This document shows positions 7,542 through 48,822 of a stretch of DNA of 64,000 nt, one piece after another. A program made the translations under genes and the position numbers. A model generated the notes under the pieces. That model worked only from the letters and a program-made list of their open reading frames with translations. It was not told the origin of the DNA and did not search any database. Each line of letters opens with the position of its first letter. Position 1 is the first letter of the stretch. The DNA is from a bacterium (GTDB lineage: Bacteria; Patescibacteriota; Saccharimonadia; CAILAD01; JADZBC01), in contig JADZBC010000009.1 in assembly GCA_020852295.1 (NCBI GenBank), forward strand, positions 104,628 to 168,627, read 5' to 3'.

Positions 7542-8168
7542 TTAATACTTTCGGATGAGGCCAATCACGACGCCCTGTATCTTCAGGGGCGTGCCGGGCT
7601 CTACATAGATAGGCTCCATTGAGGAGTTGGCGGGTTGCAAACGAATGCGACGAGCCTCCTTGTAGTAGCGTTTGAGTGTAGCTTCTGAGTTATTGACGAG
7701 CGCAACAACGACTTCACCGTTACTCGGTACTTCCTTCTCTTGCACGACCACATAGTCACCGTCGTGGATGCCGTCTTCGATCATGCTCTCACCCTTTACC
7801 TGCAATACATAGCTATGCTTGCGGCCAACCATAAATGGTGGTACTTCGAGTGTTTCGGTGTGTCCTTCGGTCGTTTCAATTGGTCGACCTGCAGCGATCA
7901 GTCCAAGAATTGGCAAAGCTACGCCATCGCCTTGAGTGATAGCCGCTTCCACTTCTTCGACGGGGAGGAGAGAGCGAGCGGAGTTATTGCCCTTGGTGAG
8001 TAAGCCTTTACCGACCAAAGCCTCGATGTGCTGCGCCACGGTGGCGACCGAGCTAAGCTTTAAGCCATTGGCGATCTCGCGGTAGCTTGGTGAATACCCG
8101 CGTTGCTCAATAAAGCTCGTGACGTAGTCTAGAGTACGACGCTGTTTTTTGGTCAAGGCACTTTTCAT
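7542..8168 (-). CDS. lexA: LexA repressor (SOS regulator, S24 peptidase)
   Basis: N-terminal wHTH (YSPSYREIANGLKLSSVATVAQHIEALVGKGLL). AG cleavage site (LIAAGRP). Ser/Lys peptidase motif (VKGESMIEDGIHDGDYVVV). Confidence 0.85.
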   Translation of the reverse strand: MKSALTKKQRRTLDYVTSFIEQRGYSPSYREIANGLKLSSVATVAQHIEALVGKGLLTKGNNSARSLLPVEEVEAAITQGDGVALPILGLIAAGRPIETTEGHTETLEVPPFMVGRKHSYVLQVKGESMIEDGIHDGDYVVVQEKEVPSNGEVVVALVNNSEATLKRYYKEARRIRLQPANSSMEPIYVEPGTPLKIQGVVIGLIRKY

Positions 8169-8619: not shown

Positions 8620-9762
8620 ATGAAAAAACTAATTTTAGCTATGCAAGTTGGGCTCGTCGCGCTTGTGTTGGCGGTCATGACATTTGGCGTGGCTCACGCG
8701 GCCGAGACGCAGAAGCTTGTGACACTCGGCAAAGATGAAGTCTTCGACGGCTTTTTTGTACGAGCCGGCTCCATAATTAAAGTTAACGGTACAGTCAATG
8801 GTGATGTCTTTTTGGCTGGGCAGGACATCACTCTGGCGGGGCGTATCAATGGAAATGTTTACGCCGCAGCCCAGACGATTACGATCAAGGGCGAGGTGAC
8901 CGGTAGCGTACATCTGGCCGCCGCTCGAGTGGATGTCTCAGCTCCAGTCGATGGCACCGGCCTGGTGGCTGCTTCTGACCTTGAGGTTGCCAAAGAGGGG
9001 AGCTTTGGCCGCGGTTTGGTCAGCGGTGTGTCCACCGCCGACATTGCCGGAAAAGTCGGTGGGCCAATGTATCTCGGTGCATCGACGGTCAATCTCGAAA
9101 ACGAGGTAACTGGCTCTGCCACGATCGGCGCCGAGCAGATTGTAGTCTCGGGTGACGGCAAGTTTGGTAATGACCTTAAGTACTACTCTGACACCAAAGA
9201 TCAGGTTGCCAAAGAAAAAGTCGCTGGTCAGCTTACCTATGTGAAGCCACAAGCTGAGACGAGGACAAACGCAGCCACTGTACTGGCCTCGGTCATCTAT
9301 GGTCTTCTTGCGAGCCTTGTGCTTGGACTCACGCTGCTTTACCTGGCACCACGTAGTACTGCAGCAGTAGCTGACTACATCCAGCGCAAACCGTTTGTGG
9401 CGGTTGCATCTGGATTTGGTTTTGTCATCCTTGTACCGCTGGCGGTGATCTTTACCTTTGTAACTGTTATCGGTATTCCGCTAGCAGTGGTTGTGGGCTT
9501 ACTCTATGGCGTAACGCTCTTTGTCGGTGAGCTCTTTGTGGCGCTCTGGGTAGGACGTACACTGCTCAAGACGACCGACTCCAAGGTAGGCGCGAATGCG
9601 CTCGCACTCCTCGCCGGACTCGTTGTATTGGCAGCTCTCAAGCTGATACCGGTGGGTGGAGTATTTGTGGCACTGCTGGCATTCTTTGCCGGAGTGGGTG
9701 CTCTCGTGGCGCGCTCGATCGAGCGTATCAGTGCAGTACACCGCTCTCAGAGTCGAGCGTAA
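8620..9762 (+). CDS. bactofilin-like beta-helical repeat protein with C-terminal polytopic membrane domain
   Basis: Signal/TM at the N-terminus. Repeated V-x-G-x-V/INGNV/VTGSV motifs typical of polymer-forming bactofilin (DUF583) beta-helix. Four or more C-terminal TM helices. Confidence 0.5.
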   Translation: MKKLILAMQVGLVALVLAVMTFGVAHAAETQKLVTLGKDEVFDGFFVRAGSIIKVNGTVNGDVFLAGQDITLAGRINGNVYAAAQTITIKGEVTGSVHLAAARVDVSAPVDGTGLVAASDLEVAKEGSFGRGLVSGVSTADIAGKVGGPMYLGASTVNLENEVTGSATIGAEQIVVSGDGKFGNDLKYYSDTKDQVAKEKVAGQLTYVKPQAETRTNAATVLASVIYGLLASLVLGLTLLYLAPRSTAAVADYIQRKPFVAVASGFGFVILVPLAVIFTFVTVIGIPLAVVVGLLYGVTLFVGELFVALWVGRTLLKTTDSKVGANALALLAGLVVLAALKLIPVGGVFVALLAFFAGVGALVARSIERISAVHRSQSRA

Positions 9763-10502: not shown

Positions 10503-10578
10503 GGGCCTGTAGCTCAGTGGTTAGAGCAGGCGGCTCATAACCGCTTGGTCGTTGGTTCGATCCCAACCAGGCCCACCA
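10503..10578 (+). tRNA. tRNA with CAT anticodon, most similar to tRNA-Ile2 (lysidine, k2CAU)
   Basis: 76-nt cloverleaf with anticodon loop cuCAUaa. Acceptor C4-G69/C5-G68. Anticodon arm is near-identical to E. coli ileX. Confidence 0.75.
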
Positions 10579-12049: not shown

Positions 12050-12150
12050 TTAGCACAAAGGGAAGCGGCTCGGTTGAGCCCCGCGAGTACGTCGTTGTAC
12101 CGCAGGACTCTTCCGAGCCGCGTGTGCCCATTCGGGCGGTTCCCCAGAGA

Positions 12151-13188
12151 TCAGGCCTCGTCGGCCTGTTGCCGGCGCGGCTTGCGCGCCAGCAGGATGG
12201 ACGATCCCGCCGCAAAGAGCAGCAGGCCGCCCGCCACCAGCCACGGCGTGTAGCTGTTGGGGCCGGTGCAGGCGAGCCCACGGGGTGGGCAGTCGCTGCT
12301 CGGCCTGTTGCCGGCTGAGCTGGGGGTGGTCGTGGTCACCGCCGGGGCGGTGGTCGACGTCGTGCTCGTGCTGGTCGTCGTGGTGACGATGTCGCTCGTG
12401 CACTTGCCGTCCAGTCCTGGCGTGATCGCCCCCGAAAGGGTGATCGTGCGTCCGTCCTCGGCTTGCGCCACCAGCTGGTAGCTCGTCACCGTGGTGGCGC
12501 CGGGCAGCTGGTAGTTGTGGGCTTCAGCCGTACCCTCGCGGAGGGAGAGTCCGGCAAGGCCGGGAAAGGTCGGTGAACTCGTCACCGTCCAGTTCACGTC
12601 GCCGTTGTTGGACGCCTCCACCCGGAGGGAGTACACACCGACCGTCTCGCACTTGGCGTAGGCCTGGGTCGAACCCAGCAGCTCCGTCGGTGGCTTGACG
12701 GTCGTGGTGGTCGTCTTCATGGTGGTGGTCGTGACCGGTGGCTTGCAGCCGGTGGCCTCGTAGACGGCTTCGCGGCTGTCGCCGCCATCGCCGTCCGTCC
12801 ACTCCATGTCGAAGAAGATCAACCCTTGGCCGACTGAAGTCTTGGCGAGCTTGAGGCTCGCGGACGCGGTCTGGCCGGGCTTGACCTCGCCGAGGTTCGC
12901 GTACACCGAGGTGTCGCGATCAACGGCCGAGACGTACATCGACCGATGGTCGTTGTTGGTGAAGGAGACCTTCACCACGACCGACTGACTGCCCTCGGGG
13001 CAGCTGGCCGACGCGCTGGTTTCCACCGTCCACGCGCCAGCCACTTGGGCCGTCGCGATGGTGAACAGGCAGCCGATGAGGGCCGCCACGAGAATACGCA
13101 ATTGGCGCATTTGAAAACTCAACTTTCTCTGGGGATGTGGGGAACACCGTGGTGCGGCCAGCCGAAGCGGCGCAAACACGGAAGGCAT
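12151..13188 (-). CDS. secreted, Thr-rich cell-wall-anchored surface protein with LAxTG-type sorting signal (high-GC, foreign)
   Basis: Signal peptide. Thr-rich linkers. C-terminal LACTG + hydrophobic stretch + RKPRRQQ tail. Local GC about 68% by eye, against about 50% background. Confidence 0.7.
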   Translation of the reverse strand: MPSVFAPLRLAAPRCSPHPQRKLSFQMRQLRILVAALIGCLFTIATAQVAGAWTVETSASASCPEGSQSVVVKVSFTNNDHRSMYVSAVDRDTSVYANLGEVKPGQTASASLKLAKTSVGQGLIFFDMEWTDGDGGDSREAVYEATGCKPPVTTTTMKTTTTTVKPPTELLGSTQAYAKCETVGVYSLRVEASNNGDVNWTVTSSPTFPGLAGLSLREGTAEAHNYQLPGATTVTSYQLVAQAEDGRTITLSGAITPGLDGKCTSDIVTTTTSTSTTSTTAPAVTTTTPSSAGNRPSSDCPPRGLACTGPNSYTPWLVAGGLLLFAAGSSILLARKPRRQQADEA

Positions 13189-13302
13189 AAGATACCATAA
13201 AATACAAAAAAAGTCAATATATTTCGCATCTAATGCTTAAGCTTGATCTGGAGGGGGAATTATTGTACTATAGCAATCCCGTTCCCAACCTGTGAGGTTA
13301 TC

Positions 13303-13848
13303 ATGAAGCTTTACCAGCAATGGTGCCGATTGCGCACCCGCCTGAAGCTGGGTCGCCGCCATGGCTTCCCGCCCGGACTCCAGAATGTGTCCACATCTCA
13401 GCCCGGCGAGTCGTTTCGCGCCCGCCCCAACTTCTACTGGTATCGAGCGATCGGATGGCCGAGCTACATGCCGGTCTATCCTCAGCCAGCGCTCGTTCGT
13501 GGTACCGCCATCACCGAAGGGTGGCCGTGCGAGTTTCGCAGCACGCGCTGGCGCGCCCGTTGGGCCGGCCCGTACTGTGTTGACTGCGACGACCCAGCAG
13601 GTGATTGGGTGCTCGTAGTCGGCCAGGTGCATGGTGAGTTGGTGCGCAACGAGCACAAGCTGGCGGATGGCACACATGAGTCGTCCGACATCTGGAACCG
13701 CATCAAGGCTCCAATCGAGAAGCTTCGGCCCGGTATTGATCCGGCCACGCTCAGGATCGATGCGACGGGCATGTTCGTCTACGGCTACGTGCCGGACCTC
13801 TGGTTCGGCAACACCGGCTGGCACGACATCCCAGACGAGGAAGGGTGA
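13303..13848 (+). CDS. hypothetical Trp/Arg-rich protein on the high-GC island
   Basis: Very high third-position GC in this frame, about 80% counted by hand. ATG at 13303 chosen over the upstream in-frame start; start uncertain. Confidence 0.45.
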   Translation: MKLYQQWCRLRTRLKLGRRHGFPPGLQNVSTSQPGESFRARPNFYWYRAIGWPSYMPVYPQPALVRGTAITEGWPCEFRSTRWRARWAGPYCVDCDDPAGDWVLVVGQVHGELVRNEHKLADGTHESSDIWNRIKAPIEKLRPGIDPATLRIDATGMFVYGYVPDLWFGNTGWHDIPDEEG

Positions 13849-13852
13849 ATCG

Positions 13853-18158: not shown

Positions 18159-18234
18159 CGCGGGGTAGAGCAATTGGCAGCTCGTCGGGCTCATAACCCG
18201 GAGGTTGCAGGTTCGAGTCCTGCCCCCGCCACCA
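18159..18234 (+). tRNA. initiator tRNA-fMet (CAT)
   Basis: C1-C72 mismatch. Three G-C pairs closing the anticodon stem (tcGGGcuCAUaaCCCgg). Near-identical to E. coli metZ. Confidence 0.9.
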
Positions 18235-19515: not shown

Positions 19516-20280
19516 ATGAGCTCACCTGAGCCTGTTCTTTGTGATCATTGTAAGAAAGAGATGGAGCAGGTTCAGGCAGATTTTTGGGGTAAGAAGCCAC
19601 CAAAAAAAAAGCAGCCACGATCGACTCAGGATAGATGGCTGCTTTGGGGATCACGCATCGCGCTTGTGATGATGTTTTTTATCGCTGAAGTGATGGGTAT
19701 GTATTGGTGGGCGAGCCATAATACGCCGCAGATTGACGGCTCGGTCGGAGATCTCAATATCATAGTTCCGGCCGCCACGCTCGAAAGGGCCGATGCCGCC
19801 CCATCTGCAGCACCAAGTGGCTACAATGGTACGGTCACGGGAGGCACGTATACCCTGGCGATCCAAAAACTTGGTTTGCGAGCACCAGTTGTACCTGTTG
19901 GTAAGACGGCCAGCGGCAATATGGACACGACGCCATCGCTGTATCAGGTAGCGTGGTATAAGCTCGGTGCGCGCCCGGGCGAGAAGGGTAATGTGGTACT
20001 GGCTGCCCACTATGGCGCCCCTGATCAAGAGGGGGTATTTCGTTCAATCGATCAGCTCAACCCAGGCGATCAGCTAACCATTGTAGTGAAAGACAATCCA
20101 AACCTGACGTATCAGGTTGTTCGGAAAGAGTACTACCCAGTCGATAACGCGCCACTAAATGCGATCTTTGGACCAAACAACAAAGCAGCTCTCAATCTGA
20201 TTACTTGCGCTGGCGACTGGGATGCAGGGTCGCGCTCGTACAACAAGCGCCTCGTTGTCTATACTGAGCTGGTGAAATGA
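19516..20280 (+). CDS. sortase (transpeptidase)
   Basis: N-terminal TM. Catalytic TLxTC-type motif LNLITCAGDW. Conserved His region. Sits directly downstream of the LPXTG substrate. Confidence 0.8.
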   Translation: MSSPEPVLCDHCKKEMEQVQADFWGKKPPKKKQPRSTQDRWLLWGSRIALVMMFFIAEVMGMYWWASHNTPQIDGSVGDLNIIVPAATLERADAAPSAAPSGYNGTVTGGTYTLAIQKLGLRAPVVPVGKTASGNMDTTPSLYQVAWYKLGARPGEKGNVVLAAHYGAPDQEGVFRSIDQLNPGDQLTIVVKDNPNLTYQVVRKEYYPVDNAPLNAIFGPNNKAALNLITCAGDWDAGSRSYNKRLVVYTELVK

Positions 20281-20344: not shown

Positions 20345-20421
20345 GGCTGCGTAGCTCAGTTGGTTAGAGCGCGGGACTCATAAGCCTGAGGTCGGAGGTT
20401 CAATTCCTCCCGCAGCCACCA
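20345..20421 (+). tRNA. elongator tRNA-Met (CAT)
   Basis: 77-nt cloverleaf. Acceptor and D-arm ggctgcgtagctcagttggttagagc resemble E. coli metT. Anticodon loop cuCAUaa. Confidence 0.8.
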
Positions 20422-20914: not shown

Positions 20915-21013
20915 TCAACTGCGCCGCTGGTCGCGTAATACCAGCAAACCCCATAGTTCACAATTTGGTTGTGGCCTGTGGGGTTTTTGTATAGCACCTC
21001 ACTGCGCGGTACA

Positions 21014-22354
21014 ATGGTGCTAATGCTACAAATTCTCAACGACCATCTTGTGAAGACCGATTTGCTGCCGCGTAATGCGAAGTTAGTGCTGGCAGTTTCT
21101 GGAGGCATTGATTCAGTCGTACTACTTGATGCCCTGAGCAAACTGCAGCCTGATTGGGGGTGGCAGATTGGGGTGGCGCATCTTGATCACAACGTCCGGG
21201 ACGATTCGGCCGATGATGCACAGTTTGTCTCTGGTTTAGCAGATAGCTATGGGTATAAGTTTTTCTTGGGCCAGCTCGACGGCACGAGCCAGGATGAAGG
21301 CTCCATGCGCCAGCTTCGTTATGATTTTCTCGATGAAATTGCTGATGGCTTCGGCGCCGATTATGTCGTGACCGCCCATCACCAAGATGATCTCATCGAG
21401 ACGACGATATTCAATACGATTCGCGGTTCGGATAGACGTGGCCTCAATGCCTTGCGCCAAAAGCGGGGTCGTCTGGTTCGACCACTGCTTGGTATCGAAA
21501 AAGGGCGGATTGTCGCATATGCGCACAGCCGAGGACTGGATTGGCGAGATGACCCTACGAACCAGGATGCAAGCTATAGTCGTAATGTGTTACGCCAGCA
21601 TGTACTAACTGACGTCCCGCTATCTGCGCCACATTTTCGGAATGACTACCTCGCGAGTCTTGGCCGACTGCAGGCGGCAGATGACCGGATCAACTCTGCA
21701 TTGTCGCAAACTTTTGAGCTCATGAGGCAACCAACGAACTTGCCGGGTGCGCTTGCCTTTTCGCGGAGTGGGTTTTTGAAATTAAGTCTGGATGTACAGA
21801 AAGCACTTTTGGTTTGGATGATCGAGCAGTTGCGTCCTGGTTTTGAACTGAGCCAGGCCAATCTCAAGGCGACGTTGCGCTATATGATTTCAGCTCCGAC
21901 CGGTAGCGTTGCTAACCTGATTTCCGGGTTGCACGTCGAGCGTAGCTATGATACATTTGTCCTTGCGTTGCAAGATAGTATTGCACAGTTGACGACAACC
22001 CCAGCCACACAGATATTGCGTCCCGACAATACGCTCACGCACCTTAATCGACGTTTTCGTCTCAGTGCCCAGCCACAAGCGACAGACCACATCGCGGTCT
22101 TTGTGGAGCCACAGGAAGTATATATCCGGACTTTTCAGGCCGGTGATCGACTCAGACCGGTTGGCATGCAGGGCAGCAAGAAGTTGTCAGACATTTTTAC
22201 CGATCAAAAAATTTCTCGCATCGAACGTAAACTATGGCCAGTTATAGTAAATCGGGCCAACAAGGTTATCTGGGTTCCTGGTCTCGCGGCAGATCGTGAA
22301 ATGACTAAGGACACACCGCAGGGCAATTATCAACTAATCTGTGAGGTGTTATGA
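21014..22354 (+). CDS. tilS: tRNA(Ile)-lysidine synthetase
   Basis: PP-loop LAVSGGIDSVVL. Length about 450 aa. The start could be the ORF-track start at 20969 or the ATG at 21014. Confidence 0.8.
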   Translation: MVLMLQILNDHLVKTDLLPRNAKLVLAVSGGIDSVVLLDALSKLQPDWGWQIGVAHLDHNVRDDSADDAQFVSGLADSYGYKFFLGQLDGTSQDEGSMRQLRYDFLDEIADGFGADYVVTAHHQDDLIETTIFNTIRGSDRRGLNALRQKRGRLVRPLLGIEKGRIVAYAHSRGLDWRDDPTNQDASYSRNVLRQHVLTDVPLSAPHFRNDYLASLGRLQAADDRINSALSQTFELMRQPTNLPGALAFSRSGFLKLSLDVQKALLVWMIEQLRPGFELSQANLKATLRYMISAPTGSVANLISGLHVERSYDTFVLALQDSIAQLTTTPATQILRPDNTLTHLNRRFRLSAQPQATDHIAVFVEPQEVYIRTFQAGDRLRPVGMQGSKKLSDIFTDQKISRIERKLWPVIVNRANKVIWVPGLAADREMTKDTPQGNYQLICEVL

Positions 22355-27632: not shown

Positions 27633-27953
27633 ATGCGTAAAGTAAGCTGCAAAAAAACGGAAGAGCGAAATATCCTGATCGATGCCCTCATGATTGTGCC
27701 GGGGCTTGTATTGACCGGATTGGTGGCAGTGAAAATATTGCCAGCTAGTATTTTTTATTATCTTTTTGCGCTCCAGTGCGGGGCAATTATTTACCTTGGG
27801 TTTATTGCTGAGTATTTACCTGGATACAACAAAAAACAGGGCTTGGCGTATGCTTATCGCGGTAAGATTGCTGAACATCGAGCCACCGGACTACTGCTTT
27901 TCACTGTCGCGAACTTTTTATTCAACTTGTTGGTACTACCAAGCCTATTCTAG
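27633..27953 (+). CDS. small hypothetical membrane protein
   Basis: ORF with 3 TM segments. Confidence 0.4.
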   Translation: MRKVSCKKTEERNILIDALMIVPGLVLTGLVAVKILPASIFYYLFALQCGAIIYLGFIAEYLPGYNKKQGLAYAYRGKIAEHRATGLLLFTVANFLFNLLVLPSLF

Positions 27954-28651
27954 TAGATGTATTGAAAACTACTCGCGGCGGCCCAGCGACTGCTACGTAC
28001 ATTCCAGCCGACATAGTTCATCTCTGAGACACGAACTTTATCACCAACCACTTCCTCGACGTAGGCAACATGGCCCCAGGTGCCGCTCGGTGTCCAGGCT
28101 ATTGCCCCGACCGTTGGGTGTGGGCCGGTCAGCCAGCCCATGGCTTTGGCGCGGGGTAGCCAGTCTCGGGCGTTGCCCCAGTTGCCAGGTACTGGTCGAC
28201 GTGACGCAACATAGGCGGTACAGTGACCGTACGAGTAGCCGGCAGTGTTGTATTGCTGGGCAGTTGATGGTCCGCTGCCACTATTACCCGTGTCGGCCGG
28301 GAGTGCCATAAGGCTCTGTGATGGTTTTGGCGCGGTCGGCGATGCGGCAGTCTTGGTGTTGACCTTGGGTGCCTGCTTGGTGTTGAGCTTGATCGTTGCT
28401 TGGTCGGGGGCCTCGGCTTTTTGAGCCATAAAAGCACTGGCCGTCTGACCAAGGATTGCATCGGACTGGTTGCCGAAGAGCCAATTACCAAATCCAAGTA
28501 GCATTAAAATCGCCAGGACGGTAACGCGCGTGCGTGGTAACTTCTCTATAGCAACACGCTTGGAGACCCGCGCTTCAATCTTGTGTGGGTCCGCTACGCG
28601 TTTAAGATATTTTTGTATGAGGCGAAAATCAGCCTCACTCATGAGTGCCAT
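27950..28651 (-). CDS. membrane-anchored CHAP-domain peptidoglycan hydrolase
   Basis: N-terminal TM. C-terminal CHAP with the Cys of YGHCTAYVA and the His of GHVAYVEEV. Confidence 0.7.
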   Translation of the reverse strand: MALMSEADFRLIQKYLKRVADPHKIEARVSKRVAIEKLPRTRVTVLAILMLLGFGNWLFGNQSDAILGQTASAFMAQKAEAPDQATIKLNTKQAPKVNTKTAASPTAPKPSQSLMALPADTGNSGSGPSTAQQYNTAGYSYGHCTAYVASRRPVPGNWGNARDWLPRAKAMGWLTGPHPTVGAIAWTPSGTWGHVAYVEEVVGDKVRVSEMNYVGWNVRSSRWAAASSFQYIY

Positions 28652-28760
28652 ATGGCAATTTCCTTACAAACAATCGACTATTGTATAACAAAAAAACATA
28701 TTATGCAAGCACTTATTCAGATTGTAAATAGCAAAAGAGTTTTGTGAAAAATGCTACAAT

Positions 28761-29756
28761 ATGCTTATGAATGGGATACCTGGATTTGAAGCGGCTCCAC
28801 CTGAGGGGATGCATAGCCCTGCCTCTGAGGCGGAACAAGATATGCGCTCAGCGTATGAAGTTGGCCGTGCTGAATTTAGTGAAACACCAAGCGATGAGGA
28901 GCTGGCGAGAAGACTTGGTGAGGCAGAATCTACGGCTGCATTGTCTCTAGAGAAAATCGCGGCTCTTGAGCGCAGAGTGCAGGAGCTCGAAGAGGAGAAC
29001 AGGACACTTAAAGCCCAGCGCCGTGATTCACACATGGCTGATGCAGCCACAACTGCTGATCTGGAGGCCCACTCGCAGCGAGTTCACGAGCTAGAACACG
29101 AAAATCGCCGGCTCAATGAGGAGCGTTTTACCGATCAGATGACCGGACTCAAGAATAAAGCTGCGCTCGATGCCGCACTTGATCATCTCGCGACCCAGCA
29201 AAAAGCGTACCGTAGCTATGAAGAGAACCCTGATCAGTATGATCCGAGTCAGTTTGGCCAATCCGCCGAAGTGCCAGCCAAGCCCAAGAAGATAGTGTTT
29301 TTTGATGCCAATAACTTCGGCAAGATCAATAAGCATGGTCGGTTTGGGCAAAAATATGGCGATACTGCCATTGTGAATGTCGGCAATGCCATCAAGGCTG
29401 CCGGAGAAGAGTTTGGTATCGAGATTCGTGATATGTTCCGGGTAGGCGGCGACGAGTTTGTGGTACTGGTTGACGAAGGCAAGGCCGAGGACTTCATACA
29501 AAGCGTTCAGAAAAATTTTGGCATTCATATCTATAATCGTGCGGGATACCATCGGGTCAGCTTCGATGAAGAGCGCAATACCGGTGCACTCTATGATCTG
29601 GATGATGAGGCGAGTGCAATCGTGACAGTTTCTGGCAAGGCCGGCGATGAATACAATGAGGCAAGCCATTTGACCGCCGAGAAAACAATGACCAAAGGCT
29701 TGGCGCGGCGAAAAGTAGGAGAGCTCTTTCATCAATACCACAGCGGCGAAAAATAG
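28761..29756 (+). CDS. GGDEF-domain diguanylate cyclase with N-terminal coiled coil
   Basis: MTGLKNKAAL..., FFDANNFGKINKHGR..GD and an intact RVGGDEFVVL motif. Confidence 0.7.
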   Translation: MLMNGIPGFEAAPPEGMHSPASEAEQDMRSAYEVGRAEFSETPSDEELARRLGEAESTAALSLEKIAALERRVQELEEENRTLKAQRRDSHMADAATTADLEAHSQRVHELEHENRRLNEERFTDQMTGLKNKAALDAALDHLATQQKAYRSYEENPDQYDPSQFGQSAEVPAKPKKIVFFDANNFGKINKHGRFGQKYGDTAIVNVGNAIKAAGEEFGIEIRDMFRVGGDEFVVLVDEGKAEDFIQSVQKNFGIHIYNRAGYHRVSFDEERNTGALYDLDDEASAIVTVSGKAGDEYNEASHLTAEKTMTKGLARRKVGELFHQYHSGEK

Positions 29757-29758
29757 AC

Positions 29759-29785
29759 TTAGCACTCTTGACAGCCGAGTGCCAA
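29759..29785 (+). promoter_or_regulatory. CIRCE operator 1 (TTAGCACTC-N9-GAGTGCCAA) embedding a TTGACA -35
   Basis: Matches the HrcA-binding CIRCE consensus TTAGCACTC-N9-GAGTGCTAA with one mismatch. Confidence 0.8.
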
Positions 29786-29803
29786 TTTTCTAAACTATTC
29801 TTG

Positions 29804-29830
29804 TTAGCACTTAACCGACTTCAGTGCTAA
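29804..29830 (+). promoter_or_regulatory. CIRCE operator 2 (TTAGCACTT-N9-CAGTGCTAA), followed by TATGAT
   Basis: Second near-consensus CIRCE inverted repeat 45 nt downstream of the first. Confidence 0.8.
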
Positions 29831-29908: not shown

Positions 29909-30600
29909 ATGACACCACGCCAACACGATATATTGCAAGCAGTTGTTCGCCACTATGCCGACACGGCTGAGCCGGTAGGGTCACTGGCGCTTTCTGAGGC
30001 ATTTGGTGTCAGCCCAGCTACAATTCGTGCCGAAATGGCGACCCTTGAGCGTCTCGGCTACATTTACCAGCCACACACATCGGCCGGTCGTGTGCCGACG
30101 GACAAAGGCTATCGCTACTACGTCAACAGCATATCCCCAGACCAGCCCAAGGCTCGCACGGTTCAGACAATCGAAAAGCGAGTCAGCTCATTAAAAGACC
30201 AAACCGACCAAGCTATCAAGATCGCGGCCGAAACTCTATCTGAACTGACCGGCAACACCGCCTTTGCGACGTTGAGCGACAGTCTCTATTACTATGGACT
30301 CAATCAGCTTTTCTCACAGCCGGAGTTTGTTGATCAGATTCGCGCCAGTATGGCCGCTCGATTTTTGGACGCTATGCAAGACTGGCTATTCACGAGTCCA
30401 TTTGATGAGCCGATCGAAGTTTATATCGGTCGAGAAAACCCTGTTGTCGAGACCTCGGGCCTCACGACAGTGATCTCTCGTTTTGAGTCGCCATACTCAC
30501 GCAATAGCTACATCGGCATAGTTGGTCCAACCCGACAAAGTTACGGTAAAGTCATTAGCCTGGTCGATGCCGTCGGCCGCCAATTGGAGGAGGTATTAAA

Positions 30601-30604
<4 letters not shown>
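29909..30604 (+). CDS. hrcA: heat-inducible transcription repressor HrcA (short form)
   Basis: N-terminal wHTH (RQHDILQAVVRHYADTAEPVGS). First gene behind the CIRCE elements. Confidence 0.8.
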
Positions 30605-33005
<2,401 letters not shown>

Positions 33006-47145: not shown

Positions 47146-48822
47146 TTAGGTCAATATTCCAACGCCCTGGCTGAGCAGCGACAAAATCCGACTAACCTCT
47201 TCGACGCTGGTGTCACCAAGTAGTATTTTTTTAATCGCAGCCATACGCAGACTGGTCATTCCACTGCTCTCCTCGGCATGCTGAATCTTCAAACTGTCAC
47301 CACCCCCAAGGATTGCCTCGCCGATTTTCTCGTTCATCTGCATGACTTCAAAAATTGCGCTGACTCCTATGTAGCCAGTGTTTTGGCAGTGTTCGCAGCC
47401 TGTAGCTCGATATAATTTGAGGTGGTTGATGATGTAGTTGATCGGCGGAATTTTCACGACTGGCTCGCCAGGCTGAGAGACTACTACTTGCGGTGTCGGT
47501 GTTTGGCTCAGCTGCTCTTCGGGTAACGGTTGCGGCTCTGGTGCCGGTGGTGCAGTTGGTTCATTGATGCTGCGGTTGAGTACAGCTGGATCCTCGCTGA
47601 TACGCTCGAGTATCGAGTGTCCTACGAGTGAGGACGCAGGTGGCGCAGGTATAACCAAACGGTCGAGGGCATGTGCGCGATTTGGATCAGTCGGCTGGGC
47701 GGACGGGTAGCTTTGTGGTGGCGGTTCATCTGCTGGTGCGGGTGCGGGAGCTTGTTGGGCAACTGGTTGCGGTGCCGGCGGTGGAGTTTGTTCGGGGTTC
47801 GCCGGCTCGTATGTCTTGAAGGCATCTATCTGTGGTGAGTTTTTGACGGCAGTATCAAGGTCAAAGTTTTGTCGTAAGAAGCCGATTTCTTCAGCATTGG
47901 GTGTGTATGGTTGTTTGCAAAATGGACAAAGTAGGCGCAACAATCGCTGGTTCACGACGACTAGTAAGTTGGAAGCTATCTGAAAGGGCTGAGCCTTGAA
48001 GCCGCGCATAAAACCAACTGTCTCTCCGATCGACGAAGTGAACATGCCAGCTAAGATCTGATGATCGGATGTGGTAGCATCAAGGGCTGTCGTGACGGTG
48101 GTACCATCAGTGATTTGGCTGAGCATGATAGTCTGCTTGCCTTGCGCGACAAGCACTTTGAGGCCTTCACCTATGCTGCTACCCTTATCGACATTGACCT
48201 TGTTTTGGCTAACACCAATAAGCTTTGATTTTACATCGAGCTCAAGCGTGGTGACGGGGGTCTGCTTCGTATCAATTGTCGAAATGATGCTATACAGGGT
48301 CGTGGTCTTACCGGACTTCGGTGGTCCAATCACTACAAGGAGTCCACGTCCTCGTGACAGAAAATCACTAACAATATCTTGCTCCTGTTGGCTCATACCA
48401 AGTCGCGCCAAAGGAGAATTGATTTGTCCCTCGGTCTGCAGTTGGAGCAATATACTATCGCCGTTGACAGTTGGCATTACCGAGACATTGACACCGATCT
48501 TCTTATCTCCAACCACGAGTTCAAAGTGGCCCTCGACCTGTTGATTGCTCAGGATGCTGATCCCGGCATATTGTCGGGTAGCGCGATCAATCGTGGTGAA
48601 CTGGCTGCTCGAGAGTACGCCCATATCACGTAGCTCGAGTCCGATGCGAAAGCGCAGCATGACTTCGCCAGCGCTCGGGGTAAAGTGAACATCGCTCGCG
48701 CCAAGCACGACTGCTTGCTGCAAAATTGCTGGCAGGGAAGTGATAGCAATACGAGAGTTGGCGGTGGTACTGAGCGGGGATGGTGCAGCACTATTTCCAG
48801 ATGGGCTTTGTGCCTGATTCAT
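47146..48822 (-). CDS. pilB: type IV pilus assembly ATPase PilB/GspE family with about 150-aa Pro-rich insertion
   Basis: Walker A GPPKSGKTT. Asp/His boxes. Tetracysteine motif (CPFC...CEHC) split by a PAPQP-rich low-complexity segment. Confidence 0.85.
   Translation of the reverse strand: MNQAQSPSGNSAAPSPLSTTANSRIAITSLPAILQQAVVLGASDVHFTPSAGEVMLRFRIGLELRDMGVLSSSQFTTIDRATRQYAGISILSNQQVEGHFELVVGDKKIGVNVSVMPTVNGDSILLQLQTEGQINSPLARLGMSQQEQDIVSDFLSRGRGLLVVIGPPKSGKTTTLYSIISTIDTKQTPVTTLELDVKSKLIGVSQNKVNVDKGSSIGEGLKVLVAQGKQTIMLSQITDGTTVTTALDATTSDHQILAGMFTSSIGETVGFMRGFKAQPFQIASNLLVVVNQRLLRLLCPFCKQPYTPNAEEIGFLRQNFDLDTAVKNSPQIDAFKTYEPANPEQTPPPAPQPVAQQAPAPAPADEPPPQSYPSAQPTDPNRAHALDRLVIPAPPASSLVGHSILERISEDPAVLNRSINEPTAPPAPEPQPLPEEQLSQTPTPQVVVSQPGEPVVKIPPINYIINHLKLYRATGCEHCQNTGYIGVSAIFEVMQMNEKIGEAILGGGDSLKIQHAEESSGMTSLRMAAIKKILLGDTSVEEVSRILSLLSQGVGILT

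Follow-up and report, generated by a model that had tools for sequence, protein, structure and literature searches.

The DNA considered here is a 64,000-nucleotide stretch of a bacterial contig (JADZBC010000009.1), termed the window, by which the whole of the analysed stretch is meant. The best named relatives of its LepA protein come from Candidatus Saccharibacteria/Saccharimonadia (72–73% identity), and the source genome is that of a saccharibacterium; the gene content, with sortase, ComEC, RNase Y, a T2SSE ATPase and RuvABC, fits this assignment. Members of the Saccharibacteria live as ultra-small epibionts and have very little machinery for regulation. Between the lepA and hrcA genes, an uninterrupted open reading frame on the + strand (28761..29756, 331 amino acids, containing FRVGGDEFVVL) encodes a protein of the GGDEF family, which is the subject of this report. 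On the available sequence evidence it is probably an active diguanylate cyclase, dimerised by a leucine zipper and released from product feedback, possibly with control exerted through its stalk and N-terminal motif. An earlier reading made from the letters alone (the sequence-only reading) had noted a lone cyclase in a reduced genome, and the LepA relatives agree with the kind of host that it supposed. It missed that the domain belongs to a mostly phage-borne clade, that the gene occupies a variable chromosomal slot, and that the C-terminal two-thirds of the protein has been exchanged as a cassette.

Gene and protein layout

The features of the gene and its product are as follows.

28752-28760, + strand: extended -10 element TGcTACAAT, with its end 7 nt upstream of the ATG at 28767; a consensus match only
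28767..29756, + strand: GGDEF protein gene, 329 amino acids plus stop; alternative in-frame ATG at 28761
28767..28892, + strand: N-terminal region, amino acids 1-42, predicted to be disordered (predicted local distance difference test score, pLDDT, 47-56) and conserved within the lineage
28890..28934, + strand: stalk-start motif SDEELARRLGEAEST, amino acids 42-56, which fits the consensus [ST]D.E[LI]..RLG.AES[ST]
28893..29126, + strand: predicted coiled-coil (leucine-zipper) stalk, amino acids 43-120, from model helices and heptads
29127..29753, + strand: GGDEF domain, amino acids 121-329, with two lineage-specific insertions (amino acids 144-175 and 256-283)
29304..29333, + strand: DANNFGKINK, amino acids 180-189, corresponding to D327-D336 of PleD
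29445..29459, + strand: GGDEF motif, amino acids 227-231, preceded by the nine residues IEIRDMFRV
29682..29696, + strand: KTMTK, amino acids 306-310, where K306 corresponds to K442 and K310 to R446 of PleD

No Shine-Dalgarno sequence is present before either ATG. The true start is probably the ATG at 28767, giving 329 amino acids, because both the public gene calls and the position of the extended -10 element fit it: public assemblies carry an identical 329-amino-acid product (P0001), called from this second ATG. The extended -10 element was not listed by a simple promoter scan because its -35 is poor. Its spacing to the ATG at 28767 suggests that the mRNA may be leaderless.

The AlphaFold2 model of the protein has a mean pLDDT of 84, with values above 90 over most of the GGDEF domain. 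Helices at amino acids 43-88 and 94-120 share one continuous heptad register, with Leu, Ile or Val at positions a and d and Asn at two of the a positions (EEENRTL and EHENRRL). By sequence, this pattern is that of a parallel dimeric leucine zipper, and weak bZIP/TSC22 Pfam matches are found at amino acids 64-86. The long N-terminal coiled coil announced by the sequence-only reading is thus supported both by the model helices and by the heptads. The stalk leads directly into the sequence D123-x-x-T-G-L and then into the GGDEF domain.

The GGDEF domain and its active site

The domain matches the Pfam GGDEF profile PF00990 with 38.7 bits (cut-off 23.8), the best stretch covering profile positions 30-95 of 161. 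Since this match is above the cut-off yet partial, and the TIGR00254 score falls just under its own cut-off, the domain is real but divergent. The GGDEF palm fold is confirmed and is distinct from that of other nucleotide cyclases; the possibility that the domain might prove to be a cyclase of another class can thus be set aside. The top Foldseek matches are the stalk-plus-GGDEF cyclases SiaD, SadC, GCN4-WspR, WspR and DgcB. The GGDEF motif itself (RVGGDEFVVL) is intact, as had been read from the sequence.

Residues were mapped onto PleD of C. crescentus (PDB 1w25) by HMMER alignments to solved cyclases and by family alignments. The positions that define activity in the literature are D327, K332, N335, D344, E370, K442 and R446 of PleD (PMC6629876). 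Their counterparts, together with that of D336, are as follows.

D327: D180, kept (Mg-binding Asp)
K332: G185, lost
N335: N188, kept (guanine-binding)
D336: K189, changed to Lys
D344: D199, kept (guanine-binding)
GGEEF: G227-F231, kept as GGDEF
K442: K306, kept (phosphate-binding Lys)
R446: K310, conservative change to Lys

Thus, six of the seven catalytic positions are kept or conservatively replaced (Arg to Lys at R446) and one, K332, is lost. The sequence-only reading had alluded to Mg- and GTP-binding residues upstream of the motif; D180, N188 and D199 are present there, as is K306 further on, and the PleD K332 position is Gly. The window protein further differs from PleD in having no receiver domains and no counterpart of the inhibitory site (I-site) R359xxD362.

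Conservation across the clade to which the domain belongs, described below, bears on the lost lysine. T126, D180, N188, G198, G227-E230 and K306 do not vary among 70 clade sequences, and D199 is at least 90% conserved in the clade alignment. The residue four positions after K306 is Lys in 92 clade members and Arg in 16. At the positions equivalent to PleD 332 and 336, 92 of 113 clade sequences have Gly and Lys, 14 have Lys and Asp, and seven have other combinations. This covariation argues for compensation and against decay; it is what a relocated catalytic lysine would be expected to produce, unlike a decaying site.

No RxxD I-site is present: positions -9 to -6 before GGDEF read I-E-I-R, and the alignment check for an I-site proposed by the sequence-only reading therefore gives a negative answer. 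RxxD is likewise absent from 111 of the 113 clade members (two have it) and is present in 40 of 84 canonical GGDEFs. The usual product inhibition is therefore not expected. Hypr enzymes carry Ser in place of the guanine-binding Asp at PleD D344; D199 is retained in the window protein, which thus does not have this Hypr feature. Between N188 and D199, the loop is longer by a two-residue insertion.

The gene is intact in six assemblies. Relative to the allele of the near relative L125, the ratio of non-synonymous to synonymous divergence (dN/dS) is 0.09 for the whole gene and 0.055 for the GGDEF domain, despite a dS of 0.66-0.9. The domain is under strong purifying selection.

A mostly phage-borne clade of GGDEF domains

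A single-sequence search of 5.8 billion proteins with the window protein gave only eight matches. Better matches came from a scan of IMG/VR than from a scan of 185,579 species genomes. The latter scan used the FRxGGDE pattern only, and among the matches listed there were only canonical GGDEFs, with 23-44% identity; the lack of close relatives from species genomes is weak evidence, because it comes from a single pattern and from the matches listed only.

The viral matches are of two types. In the first, the GGDEF domain is found inside reading frames of 845-3,784 amino acids, several of which are ended by contig ends, and one of these frames carries Pfam LPD38, a 'large polyvalent protein associated domain'. 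In the second, the proteins stand alone and are 165-200 amino acids in length. A profile search yielded more than 100 clusters of small GGDEF proteins, many on contigs of 36-60 kb; on one such contig, where every gene is on the same strand, the neighbours include SNF2 and UvrD helicases, ThyX and an RNase H-like exonuclease. When 1.84 billion representatives were searched exhaustively with HMMER, 532,064 GGDEF proteins scored at E <= 1e-3 and only 1,398 at E <= 1e-30, the window protein being at E 1.2e-50. About 65 of the top 150 are longer than 800 amino acids (up to 6,158), and the rest are mostly shorter than 260. The top match (P0249, 2,385 amino acids) has two matched stretches. Three giant viral reading frames (L082:5139-16490, L086:2-6505 and L093:645-7706; 2,168-3,784 amino acids) have GGDEF as their sole Pfam match, save for LPD38 and a weak bestrophin-like match in L093; almost all of their sequence is uncharacterised.

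A hidden Markov model (HMM) of this clade, built without Saccharibacteria proteins, was compared with an HMM of canonical cellular GGDEFs. The window protein scores 88.8 bits with the clade model and 69.3 with the canonical one, and P0003 scores 130.7 and 82.1. The signature of the clade comprises FDANNFGxxNK, RVFRxGGDEFVVL, VSLSGTxG and LQxxKxxxK together with the missing I-site, and is shared by the window domain. In a neighbour-joining tree, the window protein, P0002 and P0003 form a sister group to the phage-associated clade and are not nested in it; the tree is only indicative because it carries no bootstrap support. Nor is the clade exclusively viral, as one member (P0006) is found in an ordinary chromosomal context. 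In that context (L123), the GGDEF gene has a YajQ-family gene 6 kb away (L123:3510-4007 and L123:10001-10741), which may be coincidence. The YajQ family has been reported to bind cyclic di-GMP (c-di-GMP) in some bacteria.

Iyer et al. (2017; PMC5512222) had already drawn attention to GGDEF domains in polyvalent proteins of phages and plasmids; they proposed that the domains interfere with host nucleotide signalling and that polyvalent proteins are delivered upon invasion of a cell. These domains share the sequence clade and the signature of the window domain, with 30-38% identity. The window domain differs in being chromosomal, in belonging to a 329-amino-acid protein, in its fusion to a zipper and in its two extra insertions. 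Stand-alone phage GGDEFs from uncultured phages of about 55 kb (such as P0133, L095 and L130) are compact (about 150-195 amino acids) and have no I-site, as is also true of the proteins annotated as 'diguanylate-cyclase GGDEF domain protein' in Bordetella phages FP1 and CN1 and in YuA-like Pseudomonas phages. Small GGDEF proteins are thus already annotated in the FP1-like and YuA-like groups. On the clade profile by which the window protein is also found, P0133-type proteins reach as much as 250 bits, and structure matches in BFVD include the Bordetella phage CN1 protein. Unlike the window protein, the stand-alone phage proteins have no zipper and display an N-terminal motif ADxxFPEG[KR]ExR instead. 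The FP1 protein (L131:2932-3402, 156 amino acids) has AGDEF in place of GGDEF and the canonical Lys and Asp at positions 332 and 336. Among 50,697 deposited phage genomes, tblastn with the window domain gave no match at E <= 1e-3; the phage-clade query P0133 did give matches. In PHROGs, only unnamed GGDEF-containing families were matched.

The chromosomal slot and exchange of the cassette

The genes that surround the GGDEF gene are as follows.

27633..27953, + strand: protein of 106 amino acids with three predicted transmembrane helices and no family match; third gene of the slot
27950..28651, - strand: membrane-anchored CHAP peptidoglycan hydrolase (PF05257, 59 bits; PcsB-like NCBIfam match), divergent from the GGDEF gene
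29759-29785 and 29804-29830, + strand: two operators of the CIRCE type (controlling inverted repeat of chaperone expression); 0.03 matches expected by chance
29768-29773 (-35, TTGACA) and 29791-29796 (-10, TAAACT), + strand: hrcA promoter
29909..30604: HrcA gene

The CHAP neighbour and the CIRCE-controlled hrcA downstream were both read correctly from the sequence alone. The hrcA control region, with operators and promoter, starts 3 nt past the stop codon of the GGDEF gene, and the -35 box of hrcA lies inside the first CIRCE, 12 nt past that stop codon. The order TilS-FtsH-MurJ-LepA-[slot]-HrcA-GrpE-DnaK is conserved across Saccharibacteria. A slot filled with the membrane protein, CHAP and GGDEF genes is found only in near relatives (the loci L001/L121, L125/L126, L132, L120 and L127), and in genomes at 80% and 72% LepA identity the slot holds unrelated small proteins. 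The CHAP gene accompanies the GGDEF gene in L001, L120, L121, L125, L127 and L132, and the 106-amino-acid membrane protein is conserved as well (82% identity in L120, 61% in L127). No phage genes adjoin the GGDEF gene, which is chromosomal and lies between lepA and hrcA in six assemblies.

The GGDEF gene is the fastest-diverging gene of the neighbourhood. Its protein is 41% identical to that of L120, where the neighbours are 66-92% identical. Relative to L125, the gene has a dS of 0.92 and a dN of 0.085, and the flanks have a dS of 0-0.22 and a dN of at most 0.004, except for grpE. The latter (30601-31113, compared with L125:3654-4341) is the only flanking gene with raised non-synonymous divergence, with a dN of 0.036 and a dN/dS of 0.74 in a relative that is 96% identical. 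In the L125 relative, a 70-amino-acid open reading frame is called between grpE and dnaK; it is not called in the lineage of the window.

Two types of cassette are found in the slot. Type A, found in the window, L125 and L120, is marked by FDANNFGKINK and falls in the phage-associated clade. Type B, found in L127 and L132/P0004, is marked by DLNALKAIND, gives its higher score with the canonical profile and clusters with cellular GGDEFs. The L132 locus is about 80% identical to the window over 28230-28961, a region that runs from the 5' part of the CHAP gene through the intergenic space into the GGDEF gene, of which it takes in the first ~65 codons; beyond about codon 65, it has no detectable nucleotide similarity to the window until the stop codon and CIRCE. 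Amino acid identities for the N-terminal 140 residues of CHAP, and for the end of the stalk plus the domain, compare as follows.

Window and L125: CHAP 99%, stalk end plus domain 92%
Window and L132: CHAP 84%, stalk end plus domain 25%
Window and L120: CHAP 64%, stalk end plus domain 44%
Window and L127: CHAP 50%, stalk end plus domain about 30%
L132 and L127: CHAP 47%, stalk end plus domain 59%

The stalk-plus-domain cassette thus exists as two non-orthologous types, the distribution of which is incongruent with the phylogeny of the flanks. At least one replacement by recombination has therefore taken place, with breakpoints near codon 65 and at the 3' end. In the part upstream of this breakpoint, identity over amino acids 1-58 is 91% with L125, 81% with L132 and 55% with L120, which parallels the divergence of the flanks. 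Between alleles, the stalk varies more than any other segment, with a 25-amino-acid insertion or deletion among the differences.

Residues D43, E45, R49, L50, G51, A53, E54 and S55 of the stalk-start motif are invariant across five locus variants and both cassette types. All five variants keep this motif, the coiled coil and a GG[DE]E[FI] domain without an I-site. The same architecture in both cassette types points to selection for the activity itself.

Two other origins were considered. Recent horizontal acquisition is not supported, because the GC content of the GGDEF gene (0.511) and that of its third codon positions (GC3, 0.503) are native-like. A remnant of prophage lysis genes, in which the membrane protein, CHAP and GGDEF genes would derive from a holin/endolysin cassette, is likewise not supported, because the membrane protein has no phage family match, the CHAP protein is PcsB-like and both genes evolve at ordinary rates.

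Proposed function

Stalk-GGDEF cyclases are already well known. SiaD of P. aeruginosa (7e6g) and DgcB of C. crescentus (6ttr) are diguanylate cyclases that also consist of a coiled-coil stalk and a GGDEF domain, and the GCN4-zipper-WspR fusion (PDB 3i5c) has a similar layout. Identity of the window protein to SiaD and DgcB is 17-21%; it differs from them in having no RxxD, Gly at the position of K332, a different N-terminal peptide and a compact C-terminal half with a K...K phosphate motif. What goes beyond the routine is that the protein belongs to a mostly phage-borne subclade, large and unassayed, in which the lysine seems relocated and the I-site is missing, that it occurs in Saccharibacteria, and that its cassette is exchanged at a fixed chromosomal slot.

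In the mechanism proposed here, the parallel leucine-zipper stalk (amino acids 43-120) would pair two GGDEF domains, and the paired domains would condense two GTP to c-di-GMP. Without an RxxD I-site, output would be free of the limit set by product feedback and might instead be set by the protein level and the stalk conformation. A partner may bind the stalk at the conserved N-terminal peptide and the SDxELAxRLGxAES motif, as SiaC binds on SiaD; SiaABC-type partner genes are not found near the GGDEF gene. In the catalytic domain, which is of a rare, compact and mostly phage-borne clade, the Lys at PleD position 332 would be replaced functionally by the Lys at 336. The data establish the fold, the conserved motifs, purifying selection, the place in the clade, synteny and the incongruence of the cassette; enzymatic activity, its product, dimerisation, control through the stalk and any physiological target are deduced from them.

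Several points weigh against an active cyclase. PleD K332, one of the seven residues used to call activity (PMC6629876), is Gly, and compensation by K189 or K186 is a deduction from sequence. The TIGR00254 score is 37.2 bits against a cut-off of 37.4, 0.2 bits short, and the Pfam and TIGRFAM matches both cover the central part of the model only. The insertions at amino acids 144-175 and 256-283 are missing from the rest of the clade, and the second has low model confidence. A literature search found no biochemical assay of any clade member. Finally, no receptor, phosphodiesterase or riboswitch for c-di-GMP is visible within the 64 kb. Pfam tables, Pfam scans, Rfam and motif regular expressions showed no EAL, HD-GYP, PilZ or MshEN domain and no c-di-GMP (GEMM) riboswitch in the window, in keeping with the sequence-only reading, which saw no EAL, HD-GYP or PilZ partner; at gathering thresholds Rfam reported nine tRNAs only. 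The only T2SSE-family secretion/pilus ATPase of the window (47146..48822, - strand, 558 amino acids, ATPase domain at residues 25-311) has no N-terminal MshEN/T2SSE_N domain and ends in a C-terminal extension of about 250 amino acids with no family match. For the part in pili or adhesion that the sequence-only reading thought possible, the window provides evidence neither way.

No description of c-di-GMP signalling in Saccharibacteria came up in the searchable literature; diguanylate cyclase genes have been counted in metagenome-assembled genomes of Patescibacteria (PMC9938205). An apparently functional cyclase would mean that at least one Saccharibacteria lineage invests in cyclic-dinucleotide chemistry, and it provides a concrete protein to assay. 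An assay of one clade member would also reveal how phages use such enzymes.

The mostly phage-borne relatives raise the question of whether the protein serves in conflict and not in housekeeping signalling: as a phage defence or decoy in the manner of Panoptes, in interference with phages, or in manipulation of the epibiont's bacterial host. Diversifying or balancing selection would then explain the turnover of cassettes, and c-di-GMP could still be the product. The preference of the window domain for the clade profile over the canonical one and its neighbour-joining grouping with the phage clade are in keeping with such a role, as are the nature of the clade members (stand-alone genes on phage contigs of about 55 kb or domains in proteins of 800-6,158 amino acids) and the interference proposal of Iyer et al. 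for polyvalent-protein GGDEFs (PMC5512222). The same may be said of the divergence hotspot formed by the GGDEF gene, the incongruence of cassette type with flank phylogeny, the lineage-specific slot and the lack of feedback control. However, PADLOC found no defence system, its sole match being an insignificant one to Cas10d (E 0.006), no effector with a nucleotide-sensor domain adjoins the gene, and no secretion signal or known effector-delivery motif is present. The native-like GC and GC3 values mean that any acquisition is old, and the tree, with the Saccharibacteria branch as sister of the phage clade, does not fix which way a transfer went. The sample of alleles is only five or six, and with a low dN/dS the pattern could also reflect recombination of old alleles. 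The protein differs from OptS of the mCpol/Panoptes system, which has a minimal palm without a GGDEF motif and is paired with an S-2TMbeta effector. A role in conflict is considered unlikely, if worth keeping in mind. A fuller version, in which the saccharibacterial slot keeps a feedback-free cyclic-dinucleotide synthase whose cassette is repeatedly replaced because it acts as a weapon or decoy against phages or the epibiont's host, is rather doubtful; if true, no nucleotide-signalling conflict module would have been described in the Candidate Phyla Radiation before it. Whatever drives it, the cassette exchange is a small, clear case of modular allele replacement in a reduced genome.

A catalytically weak or inactive domain is a less probable alternative. 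The protein would then be a nucleotide-binding or scaffolding module that might, for example, sense GTP or partner the cell-wall hydrolase encoded next to it, a role of the kind that degenerate GGDEF proteins have elsewhere. The missing K332, the Lys in place of R446, the partial HMM match with its borderline TIGR00254 score, the large lineage-specific insertions and the partner enzymes that are not visible in the window are all compatible with this. Degenerate GGDEFs normally lose the GGDEF motif, the metal and base ligands and K442, but these are invariant in 70 clade sequences, and the covariation of K332/D336 with G332/K336 looks compensatory. Receptor-type GGDEFs usually bind c-di-GMP through RxxD, which the window protein does not have, and the domain is under strong purifying selection. 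An enzyme that has lost its activity is thus distinctly improbable.

Least likely is an active enzyme with another product (cyclic GMP-AMP or c-di-AMP, as with Hypr GGDEFs, or a linear or 2'-5' molecule): the clade is divergent and unassayed, palm-fold relatives such as mCpol and Cas10 make other nucleotides (PMC12657218) and the N188-D199 loop has its two-residue insertion, but the pair that specifies guanine, N335 and D344 of PleD, is kept, N188 being invariant in the clade and D199 nearly so. Production of c-di-GMP by a zipper-dimerised cyclase remains the favoured interpretation.

Other features of the window

Three tRNA-Met (CAT) genes are found within 10 kb (10503-10578, 18159-18234 and 20345-20421). 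Presumably they are the initiator, the elongator and the precursor of tRNA-Ile2, which would fit the presence of tilS at 20969-22354. The LexA repressor gene (7542-8168, - strand) lies beside a gene at 8620-9762 (+ strand) that encodes an unusual 380-amino-acid fusion, bactofilin-like in its N-terminal half and of multi-pass membrane type in its C-terminal half.

A high-GC island is present at 12050-13850 (0.615 compared with about 0.50 elsewhere). Here an open reading frame (12151..13188, - strand, 345 amino acids, no Pfam match) has an N-terminus that resembles a signal peptide, Thr-rich linkers and, at the C-terminus, an LAxTG-type sorting signal (GLACTG) followed by a hydrophobic stretch and a basic tail. 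It may be a horizontally acquired surface protein anchored to the cell wall. A sortase gene is found at 19516-20280.

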